Both the position numbers and the translations under genes were made by a program. Below, piece after piece: positions 3,995 to 19,488 of a stretch of DNA of 23,464 nucleotides. The stretch's first letter is position 1. The number at the start of each line of letters is the position of its first letter. The notes under the pieces were generated by a model, which saw only the letters and a list, made by a program, of their open reading frames with translations, was not told the DNA's origin and did no database searches. The DNA comes from Candidatus Latescibacterota bacterium (GTDB lineage Bacteria > Latescibacterota > UBA2968 > GCA-2709665): the NCBI GenBank assembly GCA_963662665.2, contig CAXXJS010000054.1, positions 1-23,464 of the forward strand. The letters run 5' to 3'.

Positions 3995-4023
3995 TTGACA
4001 GGGATGTATACAAGGAATATACT
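3995..4023 (+). promoter_or_regulatory. Sigma70 promoter driving the Ro60/ncRNA cassette
   Basis: TTGACA (3995-4000), 17-bp spacer, TATACT (4018-4023). Confidence 0.8.
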
Positions 4024-4031
4024 TGCTCGCG

Positions 4032-4322
4032 GTGAAAGAATTACTTGGAAATACAGAGATCAAAGCGGTCTTGTCGATGTCGGTTGTATCGACTCACAAG
4101 GCCATTACTGGCCTTCTGATCGGGTACTTCTACTGGCACGAGGATACGCTCGCAGTCGTATCGATGATCGCGCTGTACGGGCTCTACACGATCCCGTCTC
4201 TGGTCTTTGGGTTGGTTTCGACCGATAAAATCAAAACGTTGTGGTGGCAGATCATGCTGAGTGTGATCAACGTCATCTGCAATGTTTGGTTGGTCGGTCG
4301 CATCATGGAGCACTGGCAATGA
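4032..4322 (+). CDS. Small multi-pass membrane protein
   Basis: About three hydrophobic segments. The track's TTG at 4023 overlaps the -10 box, so the near-leaderless GTG at 4032 is preferred. Confidence 0.6.
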   Translation: MKELLGNTEIKAVLSMSVVSTHKAITGLLIGYFYWHEDTLAVVSMIALYGLYTIPSLVFGLVSTDKIKTLWWQIMLSVINVICNVWLVGRIMEHWQ

Positions 4323-4350: not shown

Positions 4351-4457
4351 CGCCCGTAGCGTAGATCGCGGTTACTTCGGTTTGACAGGTTCGATTCCTG
4401 TACCGGCAAGGCTCATAGAGCCGGTCGGTATGCGCCGTGGTCGAAAAATCTCGGGCG
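4351..4457 (+). ncRNA. Y RNA-like unit 1 (T-arm plus closed acceptor-like stem as cargo)
   Basis: Outer stem CGCCCG/CGGGCG; TAGCGTAG-N8-TACTTC; inner stem GATCGCGGT/GCCGTGGTC; T arm ACAGG-TTCGATT-CCTGT followed by ACCGGC...GCCGGT. Confidence 0.75.
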
Positions 4458-4464
4458 TCCGATT

Positions 4465-4602
4465 TTGCTCGGTAGCGTAGAAATCGGGTACTTCGCTTTT
4501 GGTGCGAGAGATCCGGGTTCGAATCCCGGCGGGCCGCTGAGCGGTCTGTGGTGTAACGGTTATCACGCTTACGTTCCCCGATTCCGACTGTACTCCGAGC
4601 AA
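4465..4602 (+). ncRNA. Y RNA-like unit 2 (circularly permuted tRNA-Gln(UUG)-like cargo; YrlA-like)
   Basis: Outer stem TTGCTCGG/CCGAGCAA; inner stem AATCGGG/CCCGATT; anticodon arm, T arm, loop-closed acceptor stem and D arm in permuted order. Confidence 0.8.
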
Positions 4603-4608
4603 TCTTTA

Positions 4609-4685
4609 CCGGTCGTAGCGTAGACAGCGGTTACTTCTCATTTTGTAAATGAACCTCCGTACCGTTGCCGTTTGATCTCGACCGG
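4609..4685 (+). ncRNA. Y RNA-like unit 3 (anticodon-like hairpin cargo)
   Basis: Outer stem CCGGTCG/CGACCGG; inner stem CAGCGGT/ACCGTTG; hairpin TCAT-TTTGTAA-ATGA. Confidence 0.75.
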
Positions 4686-4692
4686 ATCATGA

Positions 4693-4760
4693 GGCGGAGT
4701 GGAATTCGTCAGGCTTGGGAGCTCAGCGAATCGCCGGTTCAAGCCAGCACTCCGCCACCG
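4693..4760 (+). ncRNA. Degenerate tRNA-like element
   Basis: GGCGGAGT/ACTCCGCC stem followed by ACCG; imperfect T-arm GCCGG-TTCAAG-CCAGC; one internal hairpin ATTCG...CGAAT; no D arm. Confidence 0.35.
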
Positions 4761-4765
4761 CATGA

Positions 4766-4794
4766 GAGTTCCCCGCATTGGTGGGGATAGACCG
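4766..4794 (+). CRISPR. Solitary type I-E CRISPR-like repeat (not an array)
   Basis: GAGTTCCCCGCATTGGTGGGGATAGACCG is 29 nt and 23/29 identical to the E. coli I-E repeat GAGTTCCCCGCGCCAGCGGGGATAAACCG as recalled; the hairpin is retained. Confidence 0.7.
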
Positions 4795-4797
4795 ATT

Positions 4798-4907
4798 GCC
4801 CCATAGCGTAGGAGACAGATACTTCTTGGGCACATTGTTCCAAGCCTGTCACGCCGGGTTGATTCCGATACGTGGCAGACGCAACTGTTTCCGGTTGTTC
4901 TTGGGGC
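4798..4907 (+). ncRNA. Y RNA-like unit 4 (two-hairpin cargo)
   Basis: Outer stem GCCCCA/TGGGGC; inner stem GGAGACAG/CTGTTTCC; hairpins CTTGGG...TCCAAG and CTGTCACG...CGTGGCAG. Confidence 0.75.
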
Positions 4908-4914
4908 TTGTTTT

Positions 4915-4986
4915 TGGCCGTAGCGTAGGGTTCGGTTACTTCTTAAGGCTAATTAGATTTGTACCGAATCCGCTTATTCTCGGCCA
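4915..4986 (+). ncRNA. Y RNA-like unit 5 (minimal; short AU-rich loop)
   Basis: Outer stem TGGCCG/CGGCCA; inner stem GGGTTCGGT/ACCGAATCC; same invariant motifs. Confidence 0.75.
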
Positions 4987-4998
4987 TCATCGTGGAAG

Positions 4999-5098
4999 GG
5001 CCGGTAGCGTAGACAACCGATACTTCGTACATTGGCGGAAAAGTCCCTTTTGGGCACTGCCGAATTGTTGCTCTCGGTTTTCGATTTGACCTCCGGCC
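4999..5098 (+). ncRNA. Y RNA-like unit 6 (long hairpin cargo)
   Basis: Outer stem GGCCGG/CCGGCC; inner stem AACCGA/TCGGTT; cargo TTGGCGG-AAAA-GTCC...GGGC-A-CTGCCGA. Confidence 0.72.
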
Positions 5099-5153
5099 TC
5101 CCTACCTTGACGGCCCTGAATCCGCTACATCACACCTAACCGGAGGAGGGGAA

Positions 5154-6503
5154 ATGAAACTCAACAGACCACCGAAACCGACCGAATTCACGCATCAGGG
5201 AGCACCGGCCGCCCGGCTCAACATCTTCCAGAAGTTGCGCCGATCCGTGCTGGCCTGCCTGTTGTGGGAGAAGGAATTCTACGAAGACGGGATCTCGATC
5301 GCGGATCAGATCACCACTCTTGCCAAGGCACTGAAAGACCCGGTGGGTCTCTCGATGCTGGCCTGTCAGGCTCGATCCGACTACAAACTACGGCACGTCC
5401 CGCTGTTGCTCTGCTCGATCCTCGCGGAAGTCGGGAAGGGTTCCAGTGTGGTCGCGGACACCATTGCTCACTGCATCCATCGGGCTGATGAGCCGGCTGA
5501 GTTCTTGGCAATCCACGCGAACCGCAACGGTGTCAAGGCGAGCGAGATCAAGCCGATCATCACGAACCAGATGCGGAAAGGGCTGGCCCGGGCATTTCAT
5601 CGGTTCGATGCCTATCAGTTGGCGAAATACGATCGCCCGGGGGAGATTCGGCTTCGGGATGTCCTGTTTCTGTGCCACCCGAAACCGGCCAGTCCTGAGC
5701 AGGAAGACCTGTGGAAGCGCCTGATCGACGGCACGTTGGAACCGCCCGACACGTGGGAAGTCGCGCTGTCCGGGGGAGCCGACAAGAAAGAGGCGTTCAC
5801 CCGACTGCTCAAGGAAGAGAATCTCGGCTATCTCGCGTTGCTTCGGAACCTGCGGAACATGGTCAATGCCGGAGTCAAGTCGGATCTGATCCGGAAGTCC
5901 ATCCGCGCCCGCAAGGGAGCGCAGTGGGTGTTGCCGTTTCGGTATGTCGCGGCCGCTCGGGCCTGTCCGCAAATGGAGCCGGATTTGGATGCCGCGCTCT
6001 TGGCGTCGCTCGAATACGGACCACAGACCATGCCCGGACACGGCAAGACGTTTCTGCTGATCGACGTGTCCGGTTCCATGGATTCCCGATTGTCGGCGAA
6101 GTCGGACCTGACCCGGATGGATGCCGCTGCGACTCTGGCGTCGATCTGGCCTGGAGCGGATCGAGTCTTCACCTTCTCACAATCGATCAAGGAAGTTCCG
6201 CCTCGAAAGGGAATGGCCGGAGTCGATGCCATCCGCAATTCCCAACTCCATGGCGGAACCTATCTCGGGGATGCGATCCGACATCTGAACAAGGAAATGG
6301 AGCCGGAGGATCGGTTGATCGTTCTCACTGACGAACAGTCAGCCGACCGAGTGCCGGATCCCCGGGCGAAGACGGCCTACATGGTGAATGTCGCGTCCTA
6401 CCAGCGCGGGATCGGTTCTGGCCGGTGGAACCGGGTTGACGGGTTTTCCGAGCACATCATCCGGTATATCCGGGAGTTGGAGATGGCCACGAAAATCAGT
6501 TGA
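5154..6503 (+). CDS. rsr: Ro60/TROVE-domain RNA-binding protein with C-terminal vWA domain (Rsr orthologue)
   Basis: TROVE motifs LRRSVLACLLWEKEFYEDG, RADEPAEFLA, FDAYQLAKY, LRDVLFLCHPKP, TWEVALS, ALLRNLRN, LPFRY; vWA MIDAS DVSGSM, GGT, LTDEQ; strong GGAGGAGG RBS. Confidence 0.93.
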   Translation: MKLNRPPKPTEFTHQGAPAARLNIFQKLRRSVLACLLWEKEFYEDGISIADQITTLAKALKDPVGLSMLACQARSDYKLRHVPLLLCSILAEVGKGSSVVADTIAHCIHRADEPAEFLAIHANRNGVKASEIKPIITNQMRKGLARAFHRFDAYQLAKYDRPGEIRLRDVLFLCHPKPASPEQEDLWKRLIDGTLEPPDTWEVALSGGADKKEAFTRLLKEENLGYLALLRNLRNMVNAGVKSDLIRKSIRARKGAQWVLPFRYVAAARACPQMEPDLDAALLASLEYGPQTMPGHGKTFLLIDVSGSMDSRLSAKSDLTRMDAAATLASIWPGADRVFTFSQSIKEVPPRKGMAGVDAIRNSQLHGGTYLGDAIRHLNKEMEPEDRLIVLTDEQSADRVPDPRAKTAYMVNVASYQRGIGSGRWNRVDGFSEHIIRYIRELEMATKIS

Positions 6504-6528
6504 CAGACTTGTATACTTCTTGTATACT
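6500..6528 (+). promoter_or_regulatory. Sigma70 promoter overlapping the rsr stop codon
   Basis: TTGACA (6500-6505), 17-bp spacer, TATACT (6523-6528); tandem CTTGTATACTT twice (6508-6529). Confidence 0.65.
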
Positions 6529-6555: not shown

Positions 6556-6594
6556 AGCGGTCATCGGGGGCGTTCCCCGGTGGCCGCTTTCTTC
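6556..6594 (+). terminator. Intrinsic terminator-like hairpin
   Basis: 14-bp stem AGCGGTCATCGGGG/CCCCGGTGGCCGCT; its G-U pairs work on the plus-strand RNA; followed by TTCTTC; lies between convergent genes. Confidence 0.65.
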
Positions 6595-11746: not shown

Positions 11747-12486
11747 CAGGCTGGTACTTCACGGGCTTCTGCCTCAATCACAGATCCCTGATTGTAAGTG
11801 TCCTGGAGTTGGTTCCATTGGTCGGGGTCCAGCACCGCCGGCGCGAGCAGAACGCCGCCCTTGTGGTTGTGCTCAACGCGACCGCGCAGCGAGATCGCTT
11901 TCGATTCTTCCTGATAACCGTAGAACACCTTGAGCGCCCACGCTGCCCACTTCGGATCCTTTTTCGCTTTGTCGAGGATGGTGTTCGCGTGAACCATCGC
12001 TCCCTGCGCCCGGGCCTCTTCAGTTTCTTCCAGGAATCGCTGGAATTTGTCGCCCTGCCCCTTTCGCCCCAAGGCCCGCCAGCGCAAGAGCATTTGATAG
12101 GTGATGCCCGCATACGCCGCACAGTGCTTCCAGGTAAGCCCTCTATTCGCCGCCGCACAGACCAGCCTCACGACATCCTTCGTCATCAGAGACGATTGGC
12201 CGCCGGAGTCCACGACTTGGGCATCGGCTTCTACCAACTCCGTTTCCGCCGTTTTGACCTTCCCCATTTTCCTGGCGACGGTGATTTTCTCGAGGAATCG
12301 AGTGTATTTGTCCCGTTTCCCGGCTTTCAGGGACTTCCGAGCGGTGCGCTCCCACAGCCGGAGCGTCCCGAAGTTGATTCGGGCCAGAGCCGCGCACTGC
12401 TGGGGCGGCCGTCCCTCAGCAGCCGCATTGCATAGAATCTCCACTGTCTTCGGAGTCAGCTTCGATTTCCGTCCCCGTTTAGCCAT
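11746..12486 (-). CDS. terS: Terminase small subunit (duplicated HTH)
   Basis: Directly upstream of TerL; GRKSKLTP HTH start; KWAAWAL motif. Confidence 0.75.
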   Translation of the reverse strand: MAKRGRKSKLTPKTVEILCNAAAEGRPPQQCAALARINFGTLRLWERTARKSLKAGKRDKYTRFLEKITVARKMGKVKTAETELVEADAQVVDSGGQSSLMTKDVVRLVCAAANRGLTWKHCAAYAGITYQMLLRWRALGRKGQGDKFQRFLEETEEARAQGAMVHANTILDKAKKDPKWAAWALKVFYGYQEESKAISLRGRVEHNHKGGVLLAPAVLDPDQWNQLQDTYNQGSVIEAEAREVPA

Positions 12487-13216
12487 CGGATTCCTCGGCT
12501 TCGATTTGATCCAGTCGTTCGGCAGCGAGTTGTGCCAGCATACCGAACGCGATTGCGGAATTCACGACGTTCCACTTGTCTTTGATGTCTCCGATCGTGT
12601 TGAAAACCGCATTGAAGTCTTCGTACCGAGCCAAAAACGCATCCGGCGGTTTCTTGCGGTTGACATGCCGCCGCTTTTTGCTCACCCGAGCATCGATCCG
12701 CTCCAAGACTTGTCGGAATTCATCCAGTTCGGAGTGGAGAAAGAAAATGTTGACTTCACGGTACTCCGGCAGCCCGACGGTCAGCGCGGGAACGTCCAGT
12801 CCATCGAATTCCTTAATGTCGTCATCCGTGATTCCAGAGTAGAGTTTTTCATCCATGTCCAGCGTTTCGTAGAGTTCCGCCAATACGGATGGGTCGTCTT
12901 GACCGGAAATCGCATTGTGGCTCAGTTGGATCGCGACCTTCCGATCCTCGGTCAAATCGGACGTGATGATATGGGCGTCGATCGTTTTGACTCCAGCCGC
13001 GATAGCGGCCTTGGTCCGGTGATGCCCAGACAGGATCTCGGGACGGCTCTGACCGGCGGGCCAATGGGCCAAGACGGAGCTCGTAAGTGCTCCGTCCCGC
13101 TTCACATTTTCCACCAAACGGGTGAACTGGTCGCCCGTCATGTAGCGGGCGTTTTTCTCCCGTGGGAGCAGGATTTTAGGGTCGATCTTGTCAATCCGGT
13201 AGTCGATTTTTTCCAC
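12479..13216 (-). CDS. ParB/Sulfiredoxin N-terminal domain protein
   Basis: NARYM...LVENVKRDG...ILSGHHRTKAA...HNAISG. Confidence 0.85.
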   Translation of the reverse strand: MEKIDYRIDKIDPKILLPREKNARYMTGDQFTRLVENVKRDGALTSSVLAHWPAGQSRPEILSGHHRTKAAIAAGVKTIDAHIITSDLTEDRKVAIQLSHNAISGQDDPSVLAELYETLDMDEKLYSGITDDDIKEFDGLDVPALTVGLPEYREVNIFFLHSELDEFRQVLERIDARVSKKRRHVNRKKPPDAFLARYEDFNAVFNTIGDIKDKWNVVNSAIAFGMLAQLAAERLDQIEAEESDG

Positions 13217-14516
13217 GTAGATACTTTCGATACCACCAATTGAAAACCTGTTGCCCCGATTCCTCCCGAACCGGGGCCGAATACGTGATGATGTTTTTGC
13301 CCGTATCTTCGTCCTGTTTCCGCACCTTCAAATCGTAGATCCCACGGTACTTCATCGACATCGGGTGCCGGCTGATGGCGGTCGTGGTGATCGTTTCGAT
13401 CCGATGGAGCATCCGCGCTTCAACCATCGAAATCACTTCCCGGCAGATCGACAGCCGCGTCACGAATTTCGACAATTTGAACCCACCCGGGAGCGTCACG
13501 TCGCTCATCAAGTAGATCGAGTTCCAAGCGTATCGATTCCAGTTGTAGACCAAGCATCCGACCAGCATTTCGTCGATCAGAATGACGAAATTCAGGTTCC
13601 CGCGCCGCTGAACGATATCGGCGGACAGGTACACGTCCCGCACGTAGTCGGTGACTTCGTGGGGAACTTCACCGATTCTCACGGTCGATCGACGGTTGAC
13701 CTTGTAGAGGTCGATCGGGGAATACGCAATCGGAGATGTGTTCCGCGTGAAGCGCCGGACGCTCCCCCGAGCGGTTCGGGCGTAGCCGAAGTGCGGAACA
13801 TTCTTCATGGTCCTGTGCTCGATCACCGGCTTGAAGCCATCGACTACCTGGTCGGAATGCAAGCAGTACGGGACTCCGGATCGATCCACTTTCGTCAGCA
13901 CGTCATGAAATCTCTCGGGGTCATAGACCAGATATGGCGGCGGGGACCACTTCGTGTTTTGATCGATGAAGCGGAATTGCGCTTCGTAGCCGCCCTTGTA
14001 GAACGGCGGGAAGGCGACGATCCCGGAACCGGACTTGATGGCTCGGTCAATGTGGATGAGCCAATCGCCGGCGAAGTACCCGGTGAGCAGACCAGGCTCC
14101 ATCGACTTCGAGAGCTTTCCGACTCCGGCTTCAAGGTATTGCTCGAACCGCTGTTCGTAATATCGAAAATGCCTCTGATAGTAAGGGTGCTTCGACTTGA
14201 AGCGGGACATTTCGAGCGCCACCAATAGCGCGGCGACTCGGTTGATGTAAGGCTCACCGTGCAGGATGGCTTCGATGAACCCCAGCCTCTCGGTGAACTC
14301 GAATTCCAGTTCAGCGCCGGTGAACAGACGCCCGAGCGCCGTGCTGTAGAGGCTCACGTCATTGCTGTAGATTTTAAGATCCGGGAACCGCTTCCGCAGG
14401 ACGCGATCAACCTTGAAGGTTCCCGAGCAGCAAACGTGGACCCGCTCCCAATTCTCGAAATCCACCACGGCCAGCATTTGCTGGACAAACGCATTTGGAA
14501 CGGTGCCGAGAAACAT
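13191..14516 (-). CDS. Putative DNA-modification enzyme (adenine-methyltransferase-like N-terminus plus a second domain)
   Basis: SAM-binding-like CCSGTF...SNDVSLYS; catalytic-like FPPFYKGGY; translationally linked to the ParB gene. Confidence 0.55.
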   Translation of the reverse strand: MFLGTVPNAFVQQMLAVVDFENWERVHVCCSGTFKVDRVLRKRFPDLKIYSNDVSLYSTALGRLFTGAELEFEFTERLGFIEAILHGEPYINRVAALLVALEMSRFKSKHPYYQRHFRYYEQRFEQYLEAGVGKLSKSMEPGLLTGYFAGDWLIHIDRAIKSGSGIVAFPPFYKGGYEAQFRFIDQNTKWSPPPYLVYDPERFHDVLTKVDRSGVPYCLHSDQVVDGFKPVIEHRTMKNVPHFGYARTARGSVRRFTRNTSPIAYSPIDLYKVNRRSTVRIGEVPHEVTDYVRDVYLSADIVQRRGNLNFVILIDEMLVGCLVYNWNRYAWNSIYLMSDVTLPGGFKLSKFVTRLSICREVISMVEARMLHRIETITTTAISRHPMSMKYRGIYDLKVRKQDEDTGKNIITYSAPVREESGQQVFNWWYRKYLRGKNRLPD

Positions 14517-15022
14517 CTACGACGCCAACTCGAATTCGGGTGCTCGGGCGATTCCGGCTCCGATGAATTCCACGAACCAGACCCCATCGGCATACTCTTT
14601 GACTCCGGTCATTGGGCCGACGATCCCGGATTGATCGATCGATGGGTCATGAACGATCTTGGAATTCAGGCAAATGACCGTATGCCCGGTCCCATTTTTG
14701 CTCGTTCCGAGCAGCATGTAATAGAGTCCGGGGTTGTGGATCCCGACGGTTTCCAGCACGTTTCGAAGTGATTCCGTCCCCAGATAAGCCGTGGTGATCA
14801 GAGCCAAGCATAGGTATTGAGGAAGTCTATCGTGGCGTTGTGGGCCTTCTGGCAAGCCGCATCGCACCCATCCATCCCAAGCGTGATCCTGTCGTAAAAG
14901 TGCGGAACATCGTCCAGACCCAAGTCCAGAAGGGATGCGATACAGGCTCGGTAGCAATCACCGTAGGTTTCCGGCGGGTTGTGGAGATAGCGCTGAGTCA
15001 ACGGAGTCATGGTCTGAATCAT
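14517..15022 (-). pseudogene. Frameshifted papain-fold (C39-like) peptidase-like phage gene
   Basis: The N-half (GDCYRACIASLL...VPHF) and C-half (HTVI...IVHDP) are in different frames; adding one base near 14809 gives ...FLNTYGLALITTAY... Confidence 0.6.
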
Positions 15023-15055
15023 GCCTGAGAAGCGGAGATTCTGTCAAAACCCATG

Positions 15056-15084
15056 TTGACAGCAAGGAATATACGCTCTATCAT
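15056..15084 (+). promoter_or_regulatory. Sigma70 promoter of the rightward operon
   Basis: TTGACA (15056-15061), 17-bp spacer, TATCAT (15079-15084); lies at the strand switch. Confidence 0.75.
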
Positions 15085-15185
15085 CATGCATACACCATTT
15101 GGAGAATGGCTCTCCGGTCGATAGGCCGCCACCGCCGACAGGCCCAGTGGAACGGGGACCGGAGAGCCGAAACAGGAAGGGCCAA

Positions 15186-15593
15186 ATGGAAGTCACTCTG
15201 GATCAGTTGATCGAGCGCTTGGAATCGATCCCGAATACACAGTTCTCCCAATCTCATTTTGCGAATCAGGATTGCGGATGCATCGCCCATCACGTGGCCA
15301 AAATCTGCGGCAAGATTCCCGTTGAAACTTTTAGCAAGGCAGTCTCCGCTGACTGGACAATGACATTTGATGAGGCGGAAGACGTGCTCGACTCAATTAC
15401 TCCTCCTGAGATTCAATCCACTGACGTGACCGATCTGTGTGGTCCTGTATGGTGGGCGGAAGTTGATGGTCGGAATCGAGTGGTTTGTCCCAGTCGGGCG
15501 GAAGCTGTCGGGGTTTTGAAGCTGCTCCGGGAAGGGGTCAGTTTCCAAACTGCCGCCAGCATTGTCCTGTCAAAGAAAGGGAAATCGAAATGA
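15186..15593 (+). CDS. Hypothetical protein
   Basis: ATG 15186 with AGGAAGG RBS; contains GCIAHH; the stop overlaps the next ATG. Confidence 0.65.
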   Translation: MEVTLDQLIERLESIPNTQFSQSHFANQDCGCIAHHVAKICGKIPVETFSKAVSADWTMTFDEAEDVLDSITPPEIQSTDVTDLCGPVWWAEVDGRNRVVCPSRAEAVGVLKLLREGVSFQTAASIVLSKKGKSK

Positions 15594-15889
15594 TAGACGG
15601 ATTGGTCGATCAGTTGGAGAGAATCGTTTTCATCATCGAGCGGAAGGTCATTTATCAGCGCTCGGGAGAGAAGAAGTTCCGGTACATCGTCAAGGCCAAT
15701 TTGAGTGTGGACGAAGGCACTTCCGAATCCGCAGCCTTGAGGAAGTGGGCTGAGGAAAACATGCCGTCGACATTGGTGAATGGGCCGGAAAATGATGCTC
15801 ATAGCCTGATGGCGGCGGTGATCACTACCCCGGAACTCAGGGTCCACAAGGTCACATCGTACAGCTACCCGATGAAGTGGATCGATTGA
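15590..15889 (+). CDS. Hypothetical protein
   Basis: ATGA-coupled start, MIDGLVDQLERIVF... Confidence 0.6.
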   Translation: MIDGLVDQLERIVFIIERKVIYQRSGEKKFRYIVKANLSVDEGTSESAALRKWAEENMPSTLVNGPENDAHSLMAAVITTPELRVHKVTSYSYPMKWID

Positions 15890-16254
15890 TGGCGACGTGG
15901 ATCGAGCGGAGAGATCGGGAGTGGAGTCGCCAATTCCGGCTCCATAATCCGCCGATCCGACGACGGAAATCCAAACCGTTCCGATGGCCGAATGCGATCC
16001 CATTTCCGCCTCCGCAGGTCAACAGTCCATGGTGGCCGATCAAAGGCGTCAATTATCCGAAGTATCTGGTCTATGCGTGGGTAATCGGCAGGGAACCCCA
16101 TCATCTGTGGGTGCCTATGACAATCGCGTTCGAAGCGCTCATGCAAGATTCCACAGCACGGCATTTTTTCGGTTGGACAAATTGGGAAAACGTCCAGAAT
16201 CGAGCCTGTCAACTGATGGAATTACATGAGTCGATAGTGAAGGGAATGCCGTGA
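15889..16254 (+). CDS. Hypothetical protein
   Basis: TGATG coupling; the stop overlaps the next GTG. Confidence 0.55.
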   Translation: MATWIERRDREWSRQFRLHNPPIRRRKSKPFRWPNAIPFPPPQVNSPWWPIKGVNYPKYLVYAWVIGREPHHLWVPMTIAFEALMQDSTARHFFGWTNWENVQNRACQLMELHESIVKGMP

Positions 16255-16754
16255 TCCAAGCCAGTTCGGGCAACGCAGTCTTTTCGAAATGCGGAACCTA
16301 CCGCTACCGGCTTGATCGCAAGTGGATGTTCGGCTCCGGCCGAGTTGTTTGGGTATTGCTCAATCCATCAACTGCGGACGCCAAGAAAAATGATCCGACG
16401 ATTCGCCGGTGCATCCGGTTTTCGTTCGACTGGGGCTACCAGAAATTGACGATCCTGAATCTGTTCGCCTACCGGTCTACGGATCCGAAAGCGATCCGGC
16501 AGCAAGACGATCCGATCGGGCCGTCCAATCACCGAATCTCCCGGGAAGCGCTGATGACAGCGGACTTGGTTGTCTGCGGATGGGGCAATGACGGCTTCTA
16601 CCGGAAGCAGGACCGTCGGTTTCTGGATCTGATCCAAAAGTGCGGGAAGACCCCGATGATCCTCCAGTGGAATGCCAGTTGCAAAGCCCCTCGGCACCCG
16701 CTCTACATCCCTGCCGCCGCGAATCCGATCCTCTACCCTGTCGAGATTCTATGA
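16251..16754 (+). CDS. DUF1643 family protein
   Basis: YRYRLDRKW, LNPSTAD...DPTIRRC, NLFAYRSTDP, GWG and PRHPLY motifs. Confidence 0.88.
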   Translation: MIQASSGNAVFSKCGTYRYRLDRKWMFGSGRVVWVLLNPSTADAKKNDPTIRRCIRFSFDWGYQKLTILNLFAYRSTDPKAIRQQDDPIGPSNHRISREALMTADLVVCGWGNDGFYRKQDRRFLDLIQKCGKTPMILQWNASCKAPRHPLYIPAAANPILYPVEIL

Positions 16755-18226
16755 AAAGCCGCATCCTGATCGGCGCGGCCCATGAGCGCTTGAAAGAGCT
16801 TCCAAGCGAGTCTGTGAATTGCGTCGTCACTTCCCCTCCTTACTGGGGGCTTCGAGCGTACCGGGGCGGCCATGGGATGATCGGCCTTGAGCAGAACTTC
16901 GATGATCATCTGGTCAACCTTCTGGCCGTCTTCAAAGAGGTCTGGCGGGTGCTCCGGCCCGATGGAACCCTGTGGCTCAACTACGGCGATGCGTATGCCG
17001 GCAGCGGAAAGGGGGCCGGCGGGCAAGGAACCACGTCCACGATGCAACTCTCCAACACCGGAAGTTACCACAAGACCTACCGAATGAATCTGTGCGGGTT
17101 CAAGCCGAAGGATTTGATGCTGTTGCCGGCGAGAGTCGCCATGGCGCTCCAATCCGAAGGATGGTGGCTCCGTTCCGAGATCGTCTGGCACAAGCCGAAT
17201 CCAATGCCGGAGTCGGCCACCGACCGGCCAACGTCGTCACATGAGAAAATCTTCCTGTTTTCCAAGTCTGGAAAAACTCTGTATTGGACGCATCCGGTCC
17301 ATGCTGGCACGAGGGACAAACCGCCCGCCGACCACATCTTCATCAACAAGTTCACGGGCAATGTGACTCGGATCCAGCCGGAAAACTGGAAAGCCAACAA
17401 CGAGTGGAAGCGCAAGAATCTGTGGCGCGGACACACCTATTTCTACGACGGTTTGGCGGTCCGGACCCCGCTTGCCGACGAAACCAAGCGGCAGTCTTTC
17501 GACACGATGGATTTCAAGCGTCGGGACACCTACAAGATGCCCGACGGCTGGGAAACCGGACCCGGATCCCATGGAAAGGTCCATTCGAAGGGGCGGTCAA
17601 AGGGAGTTCGTGGACGGAGCACCTACGGGCGGCATACGCTCGGGGATGAGCTTCCTCCCCACGAACGACGAACTGACAAGCAGCGCGGCCATTCTAGGCG
17701 GCACGAAGGATTCAATGATCGCTGGGACTCCATGAGCAAAGAGGAGCAGCAAGCCGGCGGCGCTAATCTACGCAATGTCTGGCGAGTCGCAACCCATCCG
17801 TACAAGGGCGCTCACTTCGCCACATTTCCGTCGACCCTGATCACGCCGTGCATCCTCGCTGGATCGAGTGAAAGGGGTGTTTGCGCGGAATGCGGAGCGC
17901 CTTGGGATCGGGAGATCATACGGGAATTCCTGCAGACCGGACCCAACCGATTCAATCTCGATCCATCGAGCGAATGGGATGGGTTCCCGCGTGGCACCAC
18001 GGCGCAAACGGCCGGGGGCTGGAATCCCACCTGCGGATGCAAGGCGGAATTCGTGCCGTCTACGGTGCTTGATCCGTTCGCGGGATCAGGGACCGTCGGG
18101 CTGGTTTCTCAGCGTCTCGGACGGGATTCCGTATTGATCGAGTTGAGCCGCGAATATGCGGAGATGTCCGCTGCTCGGATCACGGCCGATATGCCGCTTT
18201 TCGCCGAAGTGGAGGTAATCGAATGA
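16751..18226 (+). CDS. DNA N4-cytosine/N6-adenine methyltransferase (beta class) with large insertions
   Basis: TSPPY (motif IV) precedes DPFAGSGT (motif I); WHKPNPMPES, HFATFP; ATG 16751 coupled to the upstream stop. Confidence 0.9.
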   Translation: MKSRILIGAAHERLKELPSESVNCVVTSPPYWGLRAYRGGHGMIGLEQNFDDHLVNLLAVFKEVWRVLRPDGTLWLNYGDAYAGSGKGAGGQGTTSTMQLSNTGSYHKTYRMNLCGFKPKDLMLLPARVAMALQSEGWWLRSEIVWHKPNPMPESATDRPTSSHEKIFLFSKSGKTLYWTHPVHAGTRDKPPADHIFINKFTGNVTRIQPENWKANNEWKRKNLWRGHTYFYDGLAVRTPLADETKRQSFDTMDFKRRDTYKMPDGWETGPGSHGKVHSKGRSKGVRGRSTYGRHTLGDELPPHERRTDKQRGHSRRHEGFNDRWDSMSKEEQQAGGANLRNVWRVATHPYKGAHFATFPSTLITPCILAGSSERGVCAECGAPWDREIIREFLQTGPNRFNLDPSSEWDGFPRGTTAQTAGGWNPTCGCKAEFVPSTVLDPFAGSGTVGLVSQRLGRDSVLIELSREYAEMSAARITADMPLFAEVEVIE

Positions 18227-19488
18227 TCGCCTACTACAATGACAACGACCGGTATATCTGCGATTGGCTCCAAAACCTGATGGACGCCGGCGAGATCATG
18301 CCCGGAAAGATCGATGATCGGAGTGTCGATGATGTCGACCCAGAAAGCCTTTTTCGATTTACCAGATGCCATTTCTTCGCCGGAATCGCCGGCTGGGACC
18401 TCGCGCTCCGCTTCTCTGGATGGCCCATCGAAAGACCGGTCTGGACCGGATCATGTCCCTGTCAGCCGCTTTCGAGCGCGGGCAAGAGAAAAGGTGCTGC
18501 CGACGAAAGACACCTCTGGCCCGCTTTTCATCGGCTCATCGAAATCTGCCGACCTCCAACGATCTTTGGCGAACAGGTTGCGTCGAATATTGGACGTGAA
18601 TGGCTCTCCGCTGTTCGACTTGATCTTGAGCAGTTGGGATATGCCGTCGGGGGTGCCGATCTTCCGGCTGCGAGCGTCGGGAATGCCAAAATCCTTACTG
18701 CGAGCGGCAAGGAGTCCATTATTTCGGATGCGATCGGAGGCGCTCCGCACATCCGGCAAAGACTGTGGTGGGTGGCGCACTCCGACCACTACGGACGGAG
18801 ATCGAGGAGCGGCCAAGAAAACTCACGATCGATCCCGGATCGGACTCACAACGATGGCAAGTTGGGCGACTCCGAGATCGGTGGAATCCGGCCATGCGAC
18901 GGGAAGTCCCGACAGAGCGCAGAAGCACCTGAGTCGGCTGGAAGATCAAGTGTTTCTGGCGGAAGCCCACTGGCCTACTCCGATGGCCGGGACTCCGAAG
19001 ACGAAAGAATACAACGAAGCGGGCAACACGGATTCGAGCCGGAAAACGGTCGAACTGGCGTCATGGCCGACCCCGAAATCCCGGAGGCCAGGACAGCCAT
19101 CGACTTACGCGAGAGGCAACCCGAATCTTGCGATGGCCGCGAGCTGGGCGACTCCCACCGGTCGCGACCACAAAGACAGATCGAGTACGTTGGAAAACAC
19201 GCCGATCAACTCGCTCCTTGGGCGTCAAGTCTCCTTATCCATTGCTCCGACGGAAAACTCCGTCCGGTTCCAGTTGAACCCCGCTTTTTCCCGTTGGCTC
19301 CAAGGGTATCCGCAGATTTGGGATCTGACCGCCCCGGTGAAGCAAGCCCGTTCCGCGTCATAACCGATCCCGAAACCGGACGATCCATCGGCCAGAAGCC
19401 GTGGCGGATCGGGATGCTCCGAGCCTATGGGAACTCCATCGTGCCTCAGACCGGTGCCCTGTTCATCCTGTCATTTCTCGATTTGTAG
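18223..19488 (+). CDS. DNA cytosine-C5 methyltransferase (alpha-type polypeptide)
   Basis: FFAGIAG (I), GSCPCQ (IV), EQV (VI), HIRQR (VIII), LRAYGNSIV (X). Confidence 0.88.
   Translation: MIAYYNDNDRYICDWLQNLMDAGEIMPGKIDDRSVDDVDPESLFRFTRCHFFAGIAGWDLALRFSGWPIERPVWTGSCPCQPLSSAGKRKGAADERHLWPAFHRLIEICRPPTIFGEQVASNIGREWLSAVRLDLEQLGYAVGGADLPAASVGNAKILTASGKESIISDAIGGAPHIRQRLWWVAHSDHYGRRSRSGQENSRSIPDRTHNDGKLGDSEIGGIRPCDGKSRQSAEAPESAGRSSVSGGSPLAYSDGRDSEDERIQRSGQHGFEPENGRTGVMADPEIPEARTAIDLRERQPESCDGRELGDSHRSRPQRQIEYVGKHADQLAPWASSLLIHCSDGKLRPVPVEPRFFPLAPRVSADLGSDRPGEASPFRVITDPETGRSIGQKPWRIGMLRAYGNSIVPQTGALFILSFLDL
18314..19363 (+). CDS. Nested alternative-frame ORF, candidate beta polypeptide of the C5 MTase (start uncertain)
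   Basis: Open for 349 codons inside the MTase gene; five W(A/P/R)TP repeats; ends QLNPAFSRWLQGYP (motif IX-like). Confidence 0.55.
   Translation: MIGVSMMSTQKAFFDLPDAISSPESPAGTSRSASLDGPSKDRSGPDHVPVSRFRARAREKVLPTKDTSGPLFIGSSKSADLQRSLANRLRRILDVNGSPLFDLILSSWDMPSGVPIFRLRASGMPKSLLRAARSPLFRMRSEALRTSGKDCGGWRTPTTTDGDRGAAKKTHDRSRIGLTTMASWATPRSVESGHATGSPDRAQKHLSRLEDQVFLAEAHWPTPMAGTPKTKEYNEAGNTDSSRKTVELASWPTPKSRRPGQPSTYARGNPNLAMAASWATPTGRDHKDRSSTLENTPINSLLGRQVSLSIAPTENSVRFQLNPAFSRWLQGYPQIWDLTAPVKQARSAS

Follow-up and report, generated by a model that had tools for sequence, protein, structure and literature searches.

A phage Ro60 gene preceded by six predicted Y RNA units that share one handle and differ in their inner modules

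Introduction

What are the six similar units that stand in a row ahead of a phage Ro60 gene, and do they encode RNAs that the Ro60 protein would carry? The question is raised by a contig of Candidatus Latescibacterota bacterium (CAXXJS010000054.1, assembly GCA_963662665.2), whose full stretch of 23,464 nucleotides (nt) was analyzed and is called the window here. Our answer, to which we assign a probability of roughly 85% on the basis of sequence comparison, is that positions 4351-5098 encode six different small non-coding Y RNAs of a YrlA/YrlB-like kind, with the phage Ro60 encoded behind them as their presumed partner.

Particles made of Ro60 and Y RNA form a conserved system of RNA surveillance, and in humans Ro60 is an autoantigen in lupus and Sjogren syndrome. 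The function of these particles in bacteria and phages is poorly understood. In published work, Ro60 grips the bulged terminal stem of a Y RNA mainly through its 5' strand, and the inner module of the RNA tethers partners, PNPase among them (PMC4201824; bioRxiv 10.1101/312249). The bacterial YrlA RNAs are encoded beside Ro60 on the same strand. They carry a 5' motif GNCGAAN0-1G that is taken as the Ro60 site, a conserved YUAY at nt 22-25 and a permuted tRNA-like module with the arms V, T, AS and D (Chen et al. 2014, PMC4201824). Among phages, the Ro60 of Thermus phage phiLo has been shown biochemically to bind its two upstream Y-like RNAs and host PNPase (PMC12135203), a Listeria phage has three candidate Y RNAs, highly transcribed, ahead of an Rsr-like gene (PMC12282133), and a Ro60-like protein of phage Bas63 is reported to counter the ppl defense system (PMC11482910).

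Results

Six units with an invariant motif precede the Ro60 gene

The units and the gene behind them are as follows. Each unit combines a shared outer part, called the handle, with an inner module, or cargo, of its own.

4351..4457, plus strand: predicted Y RNA unit 1, 107 nt; handle, T-arm-like hairpin ACAGG-UUCGAUU-CCUGU and a second hairpin; V and D arms lacking
4465..4602, plus strand: predicted Y RNA unit 2, 138 nt, of complete YrlA type; handle, V arm (5 base pairs [bp] and a 7-nt loop), T arm, AS hairpin and D arm
4609..4685, plus strand: predicted Y RNA unit 3, 77 nt; handle and a single short hairpin; the short, YrlB-like form
4686..4797, plus strand: spacer, 112 nt, which splits the array 3+3; rod-like hairpin at about 4687-4765 and short G+C hairpin at 4770-4788
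4798..4907, plus strand: predicted Y RNA unit 4, 110 nt; handle and two hairpins, with a T-loop-like GGGUUGAUUCC in the loop of the second
4915..4986, plus strand: predicted Y RNA unit 5, 72 nt; handle and a single short hairpin; short form
4999..5098, plus strand: predicted Y RNA unit 6, 100 nt; handle and one long irregular hairpin; T loop lacking
5154..6503, plus strand: phage Ro60 (Rsr-like) gene, 449 amino acids (aa); TROVE ring and vWA domain with a DVSGS metal site

The motif TAGCGTAG-N8-TACTTC is present without a mismatch at 4357, 4473, 4616, 4804, 4921 and 5005, always on the plus strand. These are the six sites from which an earlier reading of this DNA, made from its letters alone (the sequence-only reading), had proposed the array. 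Against the six matches stands a mean of 0.01 in 100 dinucleotide shuffles, none of which reached six, and TAGCGTAG by itself gives six matches against 0.06 expected. Throughout the assembly (4.86 Mb), with one mismatch allowed, TAGCGTAG-N8-TACTTC occurs only at the array, six times forward and never in reverse. It holds the same place in all window units, with TAGCGTAG at unit positions 7-14 and UAC at positions 23-25. The array lies on the strand of Ro60, with unit ends 56-697 nt upstream of the Ro60 start at 5154.

Read out by descriptor, the 6-nt outer 5' strand pairs with the 3' end of its unit at 6 of 6 positions in every unit, and the N8 segment pairs with a downstream 8-mer at 7-8 of 8 positions, G-U pairs included. 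The 3' loop reads CG-N6-CT except in unit 6, where it is CG-N7-CT, and the inserts measure 55, 82, 23, 58, 20 and 47 nt in units 1 to 6. Outer stem, N8 complement, 3' loop and variable insert are thus found in 6/6 units as they had been described. All six outer stems and all six N8 helices are unlike in sequence and keep their complementarity; the N8 helix of unit 1 includes three G-U pairs. Both helices appear in the minimum free energy fold of each unit (z -1.8 to -3.9; -3.31, -2.42, -3.91, -3.06 and -1.98 for units 1, 3, 4, 5 and 6).

Covariance models find the six units and nothing else in the window

With a strict descriptor of the unit, 62 distinct units were identified in 39 loci, whereas three shuffles of each locus gave none. 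Two loose descriptors were discarded, since one gave 239 matches in shuffled against 307 in real sequence and the other passed 91 of 159 motif matches in 'negative' loci; their counts are not used. Two covariance models were used. R1 was seeded with 20 short units from other phage and bacterial loci and contains no window sequence, and R2 was seeded with 32 long foreign units together with window unit 2.

The comparison by covariance model that the sequence-only reading had proposed returns exactly six window units with either model. R1 finds unit 5 (64.2 bits, E 2e-16), unit 3 (58.7 bits, E 7.5e-15), unit 6 (40.2 bits, E 1.5e-9), unit 1 (33.8 bits, E 1e-7), unit 4 (32.5 bits, E 2.6e-7; 48.2 bits in another R1 run) and unit 2, the last at E 3.7e-4 and with a wrong 3' end; its next match has E 0.28. 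R2 gives 102.8 bits for unit 2, which is itself 1 of the 33 R2 seeds, then 50.5 bits for unit 1 (E 1.5e-11), 48.0 for unit 5, 39.0 for unit 3, 37.1 for unit 4, the tRNA-like part of which is poorly aligned, and 26.3 for unit 6 (E 2.8e-5), with nothing further at E up to 1. Other genomes of the host phylum gave no R1 match at E up to 1e-5 (0/150). With filters off, R1 loses units longer than about 105 nt and misaligns unit 2, so the copy numbers below are the union of R1 and R2 matches.

The handle covaries as an RNA structure

Over 113 model-aligned units from 46 sources, 92.4% of the cells in paired columns can pair, against 63.5% in shuffled alignments and 44-51% when partners are slid, a percentage that is inflated in the handle helices because the seed descriptor demanded pairing there. 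Double changes are seen at 32 of the 36 pairs. The claim that the stems vary yet always pair is borne out in the six units, and covariation is seen across the family. Outside the selected helices, the T, AS and D arms of the long units, on which the descriptor made no demand, are paired at 100, 96.9 and 96.8% with compensatory changes. Position 2 of the motif and the last base of the 3' loop form 84 G-C and 27 A-U pairs, with 2 other combinations, among the 113 units; in the descriptor set, in which this pair was not required, the counts are 42 G-C, 20 A-T and 0 other (n=62). In the six units of the window position 2 is always A and its partner U. Motif position 8 (G) faces a C at the first loop base in 58/62 units.

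From these sequences the predicted handle reads, in order, as a terminal stem of 6-8 bp, a bulged U, an R-Y pair, a G-C pair, an internal loop, a 9-bp helix and UAC-UUC. In the window, the pairs after the bulged U are A-U and then G-C. The internal loop is asymmetric, with CGNA on its 5' side (CGUA in the window) and G-N5/6 on its 3' side.

With six repeats of even build, each with the same 8-mer and 6-mer, protein-binding sites in DNA are another option, and the array might then consist of iterons, or of recombination or packaging sites, in which pairing is incidental. As DNA sites, however, the units would have no call for two helices that change from unit to unit yet stay complementary, with several G-U pairs. 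Nor does the opposite strand of the window hold any R1 or R2 match, and the orientation of the units always follows that of Ro60. We put the likelihood of a DNA-level role at next to nil. Given the G-U pairs and the absence of opposite-strand matches, we take the structure to be that of an RNA read from the plus strand.

Rows of such units accompany Ro60 in its relatives

That the gene behind the array encodes a phage Ro60, as had been proposed, is upheld by its domains, its match to a solved phage Ro60 and its surroundings. Its open reading frame (ORF) matches Pfam TROVE with 41.1 bits (cut-off 23) and VWA_2 with 27.5 bits (cut-off 27), so that TROVE, the HEAT-repeat ring, is followed by a vWA domain with a DxSxS site, as in Ro60/Rsr. 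It also matches PHROG 850, 'RNA-binding protein' (E 7.7e-38), and aligns over its full length (residues 13-445, E 1.2e-22) with the solved Ro60 of Thermus phage phiLo (9KOP/9L5Y), with DVSGS, the DxSxS metal site, falling on the same residues. It is the sole TROVE match of the assembly and is 54% identical to gp139 of Caulobacter phage CcrColossus. The contig is phage-like, with a major head protein, portal, terminase, MuF and head closure protein.

We gathered 40 further loci by Ro60 protein similarity alone, 28 from viral and 12 from bacterial or archaeal genome records; loci are denoted by L and a number. All 40 have at least two full-length units, every one of them on the Ro60 strand (R1 or R2, E up to 1e-3). 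There are two units in 15 loci, three in 14, four in 5, five in 5 and eight in 1, numbers that are lower bounds with flanks of 2.5 kb and that include the near-duplicate loci L136/L137, L151/L152 and L144/L146. Rows of 2-5 units are the rule in the clade of the window Ro60. Six is at the high end and not unique, since CcrColossus has eight units and the motif-seeded loci L054 and L108 have six motif sites each within 2 mismatches.

A scan of viral contigs for the bare motif gave 120 loci, with a Ro60 homologue directly adjoining the motif in 13; with 14 specified bases, most of these loci are expected to be chance matches. Five records carried strict units in a fetched piece without Ro60, and all five encode Ro60 elsewhere. 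One of the checks proposed for the array had been its linkage to TROVE genes in other genomes, and the linkage holds in 40/40 protein-seeded loci and, at a distance, in these 5/5 records.

Several observations concern the surroundings of these loci. In L157 and L158, both from alphaproteobacterial genome records, the Ro60/Y RNA locus lies inside a large array of tRNA genes, and in L054 a tmRNA gene (119.5 bits) is found nearby. Where tandem tRNAs adjoin, R2 produces partial matches (model positions 26-101), an artefact that Chen et al. 2014 report as well. Six partial R2 matches in the tRNA arrays of L157 and L158 (model positions 26-64, 26-101, 26-102) were dropped from the counts.

The units have the build of YrlA and YrlB RNAs

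By sequence and predicted structure, the handle sits where YrlA RNAs have their published Ro60-binding module, and its motif is of the same type. The units lie near Ro60, on the same strand and within about 4 kb of it. All six have the terminal stem, the motif type, the helix and the conserved UA about 8 nt further on, in the same architecture and spacing, and one RNA of the locus, unit 2, has the tRNA-like module. The window motif UAGCGUAG differs from GNCGAAN0-1G by A for G and U for A. We tie it to the published motif nonetheless, because TGGCGAAG, an exact GNCGAAG, occurs among relatives of the same model family, and because the A/G change covaries with its 3' partner (111/113). TGGCGAAG is found in 4/62 units and TGGTGAAG in 6/62. 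Published YrlA members also stray from the consensus (Supplementary text 1, PMC4201824).

In the proposed comparison with the Rfam model of YrlA (RF02553, gathering score 69 bits), the long units of the relatives match with 34.5-55.9 bits, below 69 (E 5.7e-10 to 9e-4), and many of these matches span the whole model. Unit 2 scores 15.7 bits (E 4.4) over T-AS-D only. A published YrlA of CcrColossus is likewise under the gathering score, at 42.3 bits. Such a threshold is an operational cut-off of one model and not a biological feature.

CcrColossus is a published case. Three YrlAs upstream of its Ro60 are listed in Table S2 of Chen et al. 2014 (PMC4201824), and these are the units L167 1485-1623, 1657-1821 and 1986-2119. 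Our models find eight tandem units there (L167 = L129, 1250-2443), five beyond the three published, with a handle that reads GG-TGGCGTAG-N8-TACTTC...TTCC-CC. Since the CcrColossus Ro60 is 54% identical to that of the window and the published YrlAs share the handle, the window belongs to a YrlA subfamily carried by phages, part of which had been described in 2014. Two annotations of this phage fall within its units: a 'rho-independent terminator' at L167 1588-1603 is inside unit 1485-1623, and the 5' half of a Y RNA unit at L167 1661-1728 (D866_gt024) is a tRNA-Gln in RefSeq.

Compared more widely, the window shares with the YrlA RNAs of Salmonella Typhimurium, Mycobacterium smegmatis, a mycobacteriophage and CcrColossus the locus, terminal stem, motif type and UA, and through unit 2 the permuted V-T-AS-D module, although only one of its six units has that module whole; a YrlA structure is given in Wang et al. 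2018 (bioRxiv 10.1101/312249). YrlB of Salmonella Typhimurium is a short RNA with the Ro60 motif and no tRNA-like domain, encoded beside YrlA (Chen et al. 2013 and 2014; PMC4201824). Units 3, 5 and probably 6 have a YrlB-like build, a likeness drawn from the description of YrlB rather than its sequence, but the window has several such short RNAs, each with stems of its own. Phage phiLo resembles the window in having more than one Y-like RNA before Ro60, namely Yrl1 and Yrl2, with a 5'-3' stem and a CGAA-type internal loop (PMC12135203). It has two RNAs against six here, the Ro60 proteins are distantly related, and the RNAs too are likened by description only. The Y RNAs of metazoans and Deinococcus (hY1-5, Xenopus Y3, Yrn1) are modular like those of the window, with a bulged terminal stem, an effector part and several paralogues per genome, but the binding helix of the animal RNAs is conserved on both strands, and these RNAs lack a tRNA-like module (PMC4201824).

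The inner modules range from tRNA-like to short hairpins

Inserts of the family are bimodal in length, with 11-29 nt in 20/62 units and 76-91 nt in 34/62. In the window, the tRNA-like module is whole in unit 2, reduced to its T arm in unit 1 and missing from units 3-6. Unit 2 can be aligned over its whole length with 32 long units of other loci, with V, T, AS and D all included. Unit 1, in the R2 alignment, has the T arm and an AS-like stem aligned and V and D deleted. The hairpins of the short units 3 and 5 begin with a conserved UUC. By blastn-short against the 162 loci, the insert of unit 2 has a match through its T loop only, and those of units 1, 3, 4, 5 and 6 match nothing above chance. 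Cargo is truly variable in this array, along the known axis from YrlA-like to YrlB-like RNAs and with idiosyncratic hairpins besides, in units 4 and 6.

In an alignment of 33 long units that includes window 4467-4600 (A2), a 5-bp stem with a 7-nt loop follows UAC directly in 19/33, and other lengths of the V loop fit 0-7 of the 33. The 7-nt loops resemble anticodon loops, with U at position 2 in 18/19 and a purine at position 6 in 17/19. Their middle triplets vary, and the triplet is UUG in the window. An anticodon-like V arm fits either a descent of YrlA from tandem tRNAs or functional mimicry of an anticodon arm.

These arms raise the question of whether the units are instead tRNA genes, or degenerate tRNA-derived decoys whose action does not involve Ro60, for instance as substitutes or as bait where host nucleases attack tRNAs. 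ARAGORN reads the 5' half of unit 2 (4465-4537) as tRNA-Gln(UUG), its homologous CcrColossus unit is annotated tRNA-Gln, and L158 1589-1659 passes the Rfam tRNA gathering score (33.7 bits), all of which, together with the anticodon-arm-like stem and loop, would suit such a role. Unit 2, however, scores only 20.4 bits with the Rfam tRNA model, under the cut-off of 29; it lacks a D stem, and the pairs at that place are marked non-standard. Its 5' end pairs over 8 bp with its own 3' end and at only 6/7 positions, with one mismatch, with the strand after the T arm. Five of the six window units lack a cloverleaf, and what is conserved across all units is the handle and not tRNA identity elements. 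Moreover, in the loci examined the units and Ro60 always occur together. We exclude true tRNA genes in the case of five units and find one unlikely in the case of unit 2. The tRNA-Gln calls in the window and in CcrColossus and the tRNA match in L158 are probably mis-annotated Y RNAs, and a Ro60-independent tRNA or decoy role for the units is highly improbable.

The spacer between units 3 and 4 folds with z -1.95 to -2.11. We rejected it as a seventh unit, as it has neither an R1 nor an R2 match, and as a tRNA or tmRNA, as ARAGORN is blank at its default setting, finds no tRNA at default or 80% and gives tRNA-Pro only at 60%. A 'permuted tmRNA' is called over 4448-4783 at the 80% threshold only. 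The spacer has no Rfam match at E up to 10 and no similar sequence in the 162 loci. The 5' strand of its rod holds GGCGGAG, which is like the handle motif but fully paired, and CATGAG stands at both ends of the rod.

Flanking sequence and a possible role in the Ro60 leader

Three further features frame the array and the gene.

3995..4023, plus strand: putative sigma-70-like promoter, TTGACA-17-TATACT, 11/12, from a consensus scan only
4023..4322, plus strand: ORF of 99 aa, directly upstream of the array, assigned to its transcript by position alone
6556..6588, plus strand: terminator-like hairpin with a T-rich tail, after Ro60, from a consensus scan only

The 99-aa ORF has neither a Pfam nor a PHROG match. 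Two promoter-like sites were found against 1.4 expected in shuffles, with none between 4023 and 6500. The terminator-like hairpin is weak when taken alone, because one was found against 2.8 expected in shuffles. An identical promoter-like TTGACA-17-TATACT (11/12) recurs at 6500-6528, over the Ro60 stop codon, and is followed by a tandem CTTGTATACTT repeat and then by the terminator-like hairpin.

This arrangement would also suit a role in cis, in which the six units are Ro60-binding sites in the 5' leader of the mRNA and provide feedback on Ro60 synthesis or mRNA stability. The sole upstream promoter-like site (3995) precedes all six units, which in turn precede the Ro60 start, no terminator-like site was found along the way, and the last unit ends 55 nt before the ATG, which is preceded by GGAGGAGGGG. 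In unit 6, a 7-nt stretch of the 3' strand, CCUCCGG (5090-5096), forms the complement of CCGGAGG (5139-5145), the Shine-Dalgarno region of Ro60. The corresponding fold (5085-5160), however, has z -0.20, and 75 of 200 shuffles fold as well; an anti-Shine-Dalgarno switch between unit 6 and the ribosome-binding site of Ro60 was therefore dropped. No comparable complement stood out by eye in CcrColossus. The position of the units in other genomes speaks against a leader as well. They are mostly upstream of Ro60, but some are downstream in L139, L145 and L150, and in one jumbo phage Ro60 lies about 35 kb from them. Further, the tRNA-like module of unit 2 would have no obvious use in a leader, and the published homologues are stable RNAs (YrlA, Chen et al. 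2014). We consider the leader account improbable, and a leader role and a role as trans-acting RNAs are mutually compatible.

Elsewhere in the window, positions 12479-19488 hold a dense set of DNA-modification and related genes that includes a ParB-N-like protein. Among them are a Dam-like methylase fused to a phage GNAT-like domain (13191-14516, minus strand), a DUF1643 gene (16251-16754, plus strand), an N6/N4 methylase (16640-18226, plus strand) and a C5 cytosine methylase (18223-19488, plus strand).

Discussion

The core of the sequence-only reading, that the units are Y RNA-like and combine a common Ro60 handle with differing inner modules, has gained support from covariation, from co-occurrence with Ro60 and from the YrlA module of unit 2. 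Several points weigh against our identification of the units as six Y RNAs. The window motif agrees with the published consensus at only 5/7 positions, no window match reaches any Rfam gathering score, and the 15.7 bits of unit 2 compare with a YrlA gathering score of 69. The seeds of R1 and R2 were picked by a descriptor that demands pairing in both handle helices, and the related sequences in the covariation set are not independent of one another. The cargoes of units 1, 4 and 6 are without detectable relatives in the 162 loci, so any function proposed for them is conjecture. In the consensus scan, sites like the promoter and the terminator turn up about as often as chance predicts. Finally, we infer the discrete RNAs, with their ends and processing, and likewise their binding by the window Ro60, the latter from co-occurrence and by analogy with the published systems.

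If the array does encode six Y RNAs, it would be transcribed together with Ro60 from the candidate promoter at 3995 to the terminator-like site at 6556, and the transcript would be cut into six RNAs of 72-138 nt. The Ro60 ring would then bind each RNA by its handle, with the conserved 5' strand of the bulged helix as the main contact, and the inner modules would either gate Ro60 or tether it to different partners. For the tRNA-like modules such partners may be host PNPase or tRNA-recognizing enzymes. The likely purpose in infection would be RNA decay or repair, or counter-defense; in view of the Bas63 protein, a counter-defense role is possible. The sequence-only reading had conjectured a programmable RNP or decoy panel. 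A more specific proposal is that the array is a panel, by which one Ro60 ring is retargeted by six interchangeable modules. The V hairpins of the tRNA-like members, whose 'anticodon' triplets differ between units and phages, would serve as bait or guide in a conflict over tRNAs, either as decoys for host anticodon nucleases or by bringing Ro60 together with an exonuclease or repair enzyme to damaged tRNAs, and the whole would act in counter-defense. We regard this proposal as improbable.

With respect to novelty, the earlier claim that no such phage array had been described was overstated, since the handle is a variant of GNCGAAN0-1G and since three YrlAs of CcrColossus (2014) and two RNAs of phiLo had already been published. 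In the searchable full-text literature, which leaves subscription papers outside, we found no description of phage Y RNA arrays of six to eight genes or of the URGCGUAG variant. Within that literature, four points seem to be unreported: the URGCGUAG variant with its R-Y covariation, short non-tRNA-like phage RNAs with the same handle, arrays of six to eight genes (eight in CcrColossus against three published) and the anticodon-arm-like V hairpin. These points refine a known system. What kind of element this is, which partner it has and where it sits in genomes had been established before, and the step is an incremental one.

What the locus adds is a large natural data set, made up of the window array and about 50 relatives, in which one handle is combined with many cargoes. 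It yields a precise model of the Ro60 docking site, with a bulged U, a covarying R-Y pair, a G-C pair and a CGNA loop strand. The current Rfam model misses most of the Y RNAs in this clade of phages, and some of them are annotated as tRNA-Gln. If the reading of the V hairpins as bait or guide were true, it would make Ro60-Y RNA arrays a phage counter-defense system.

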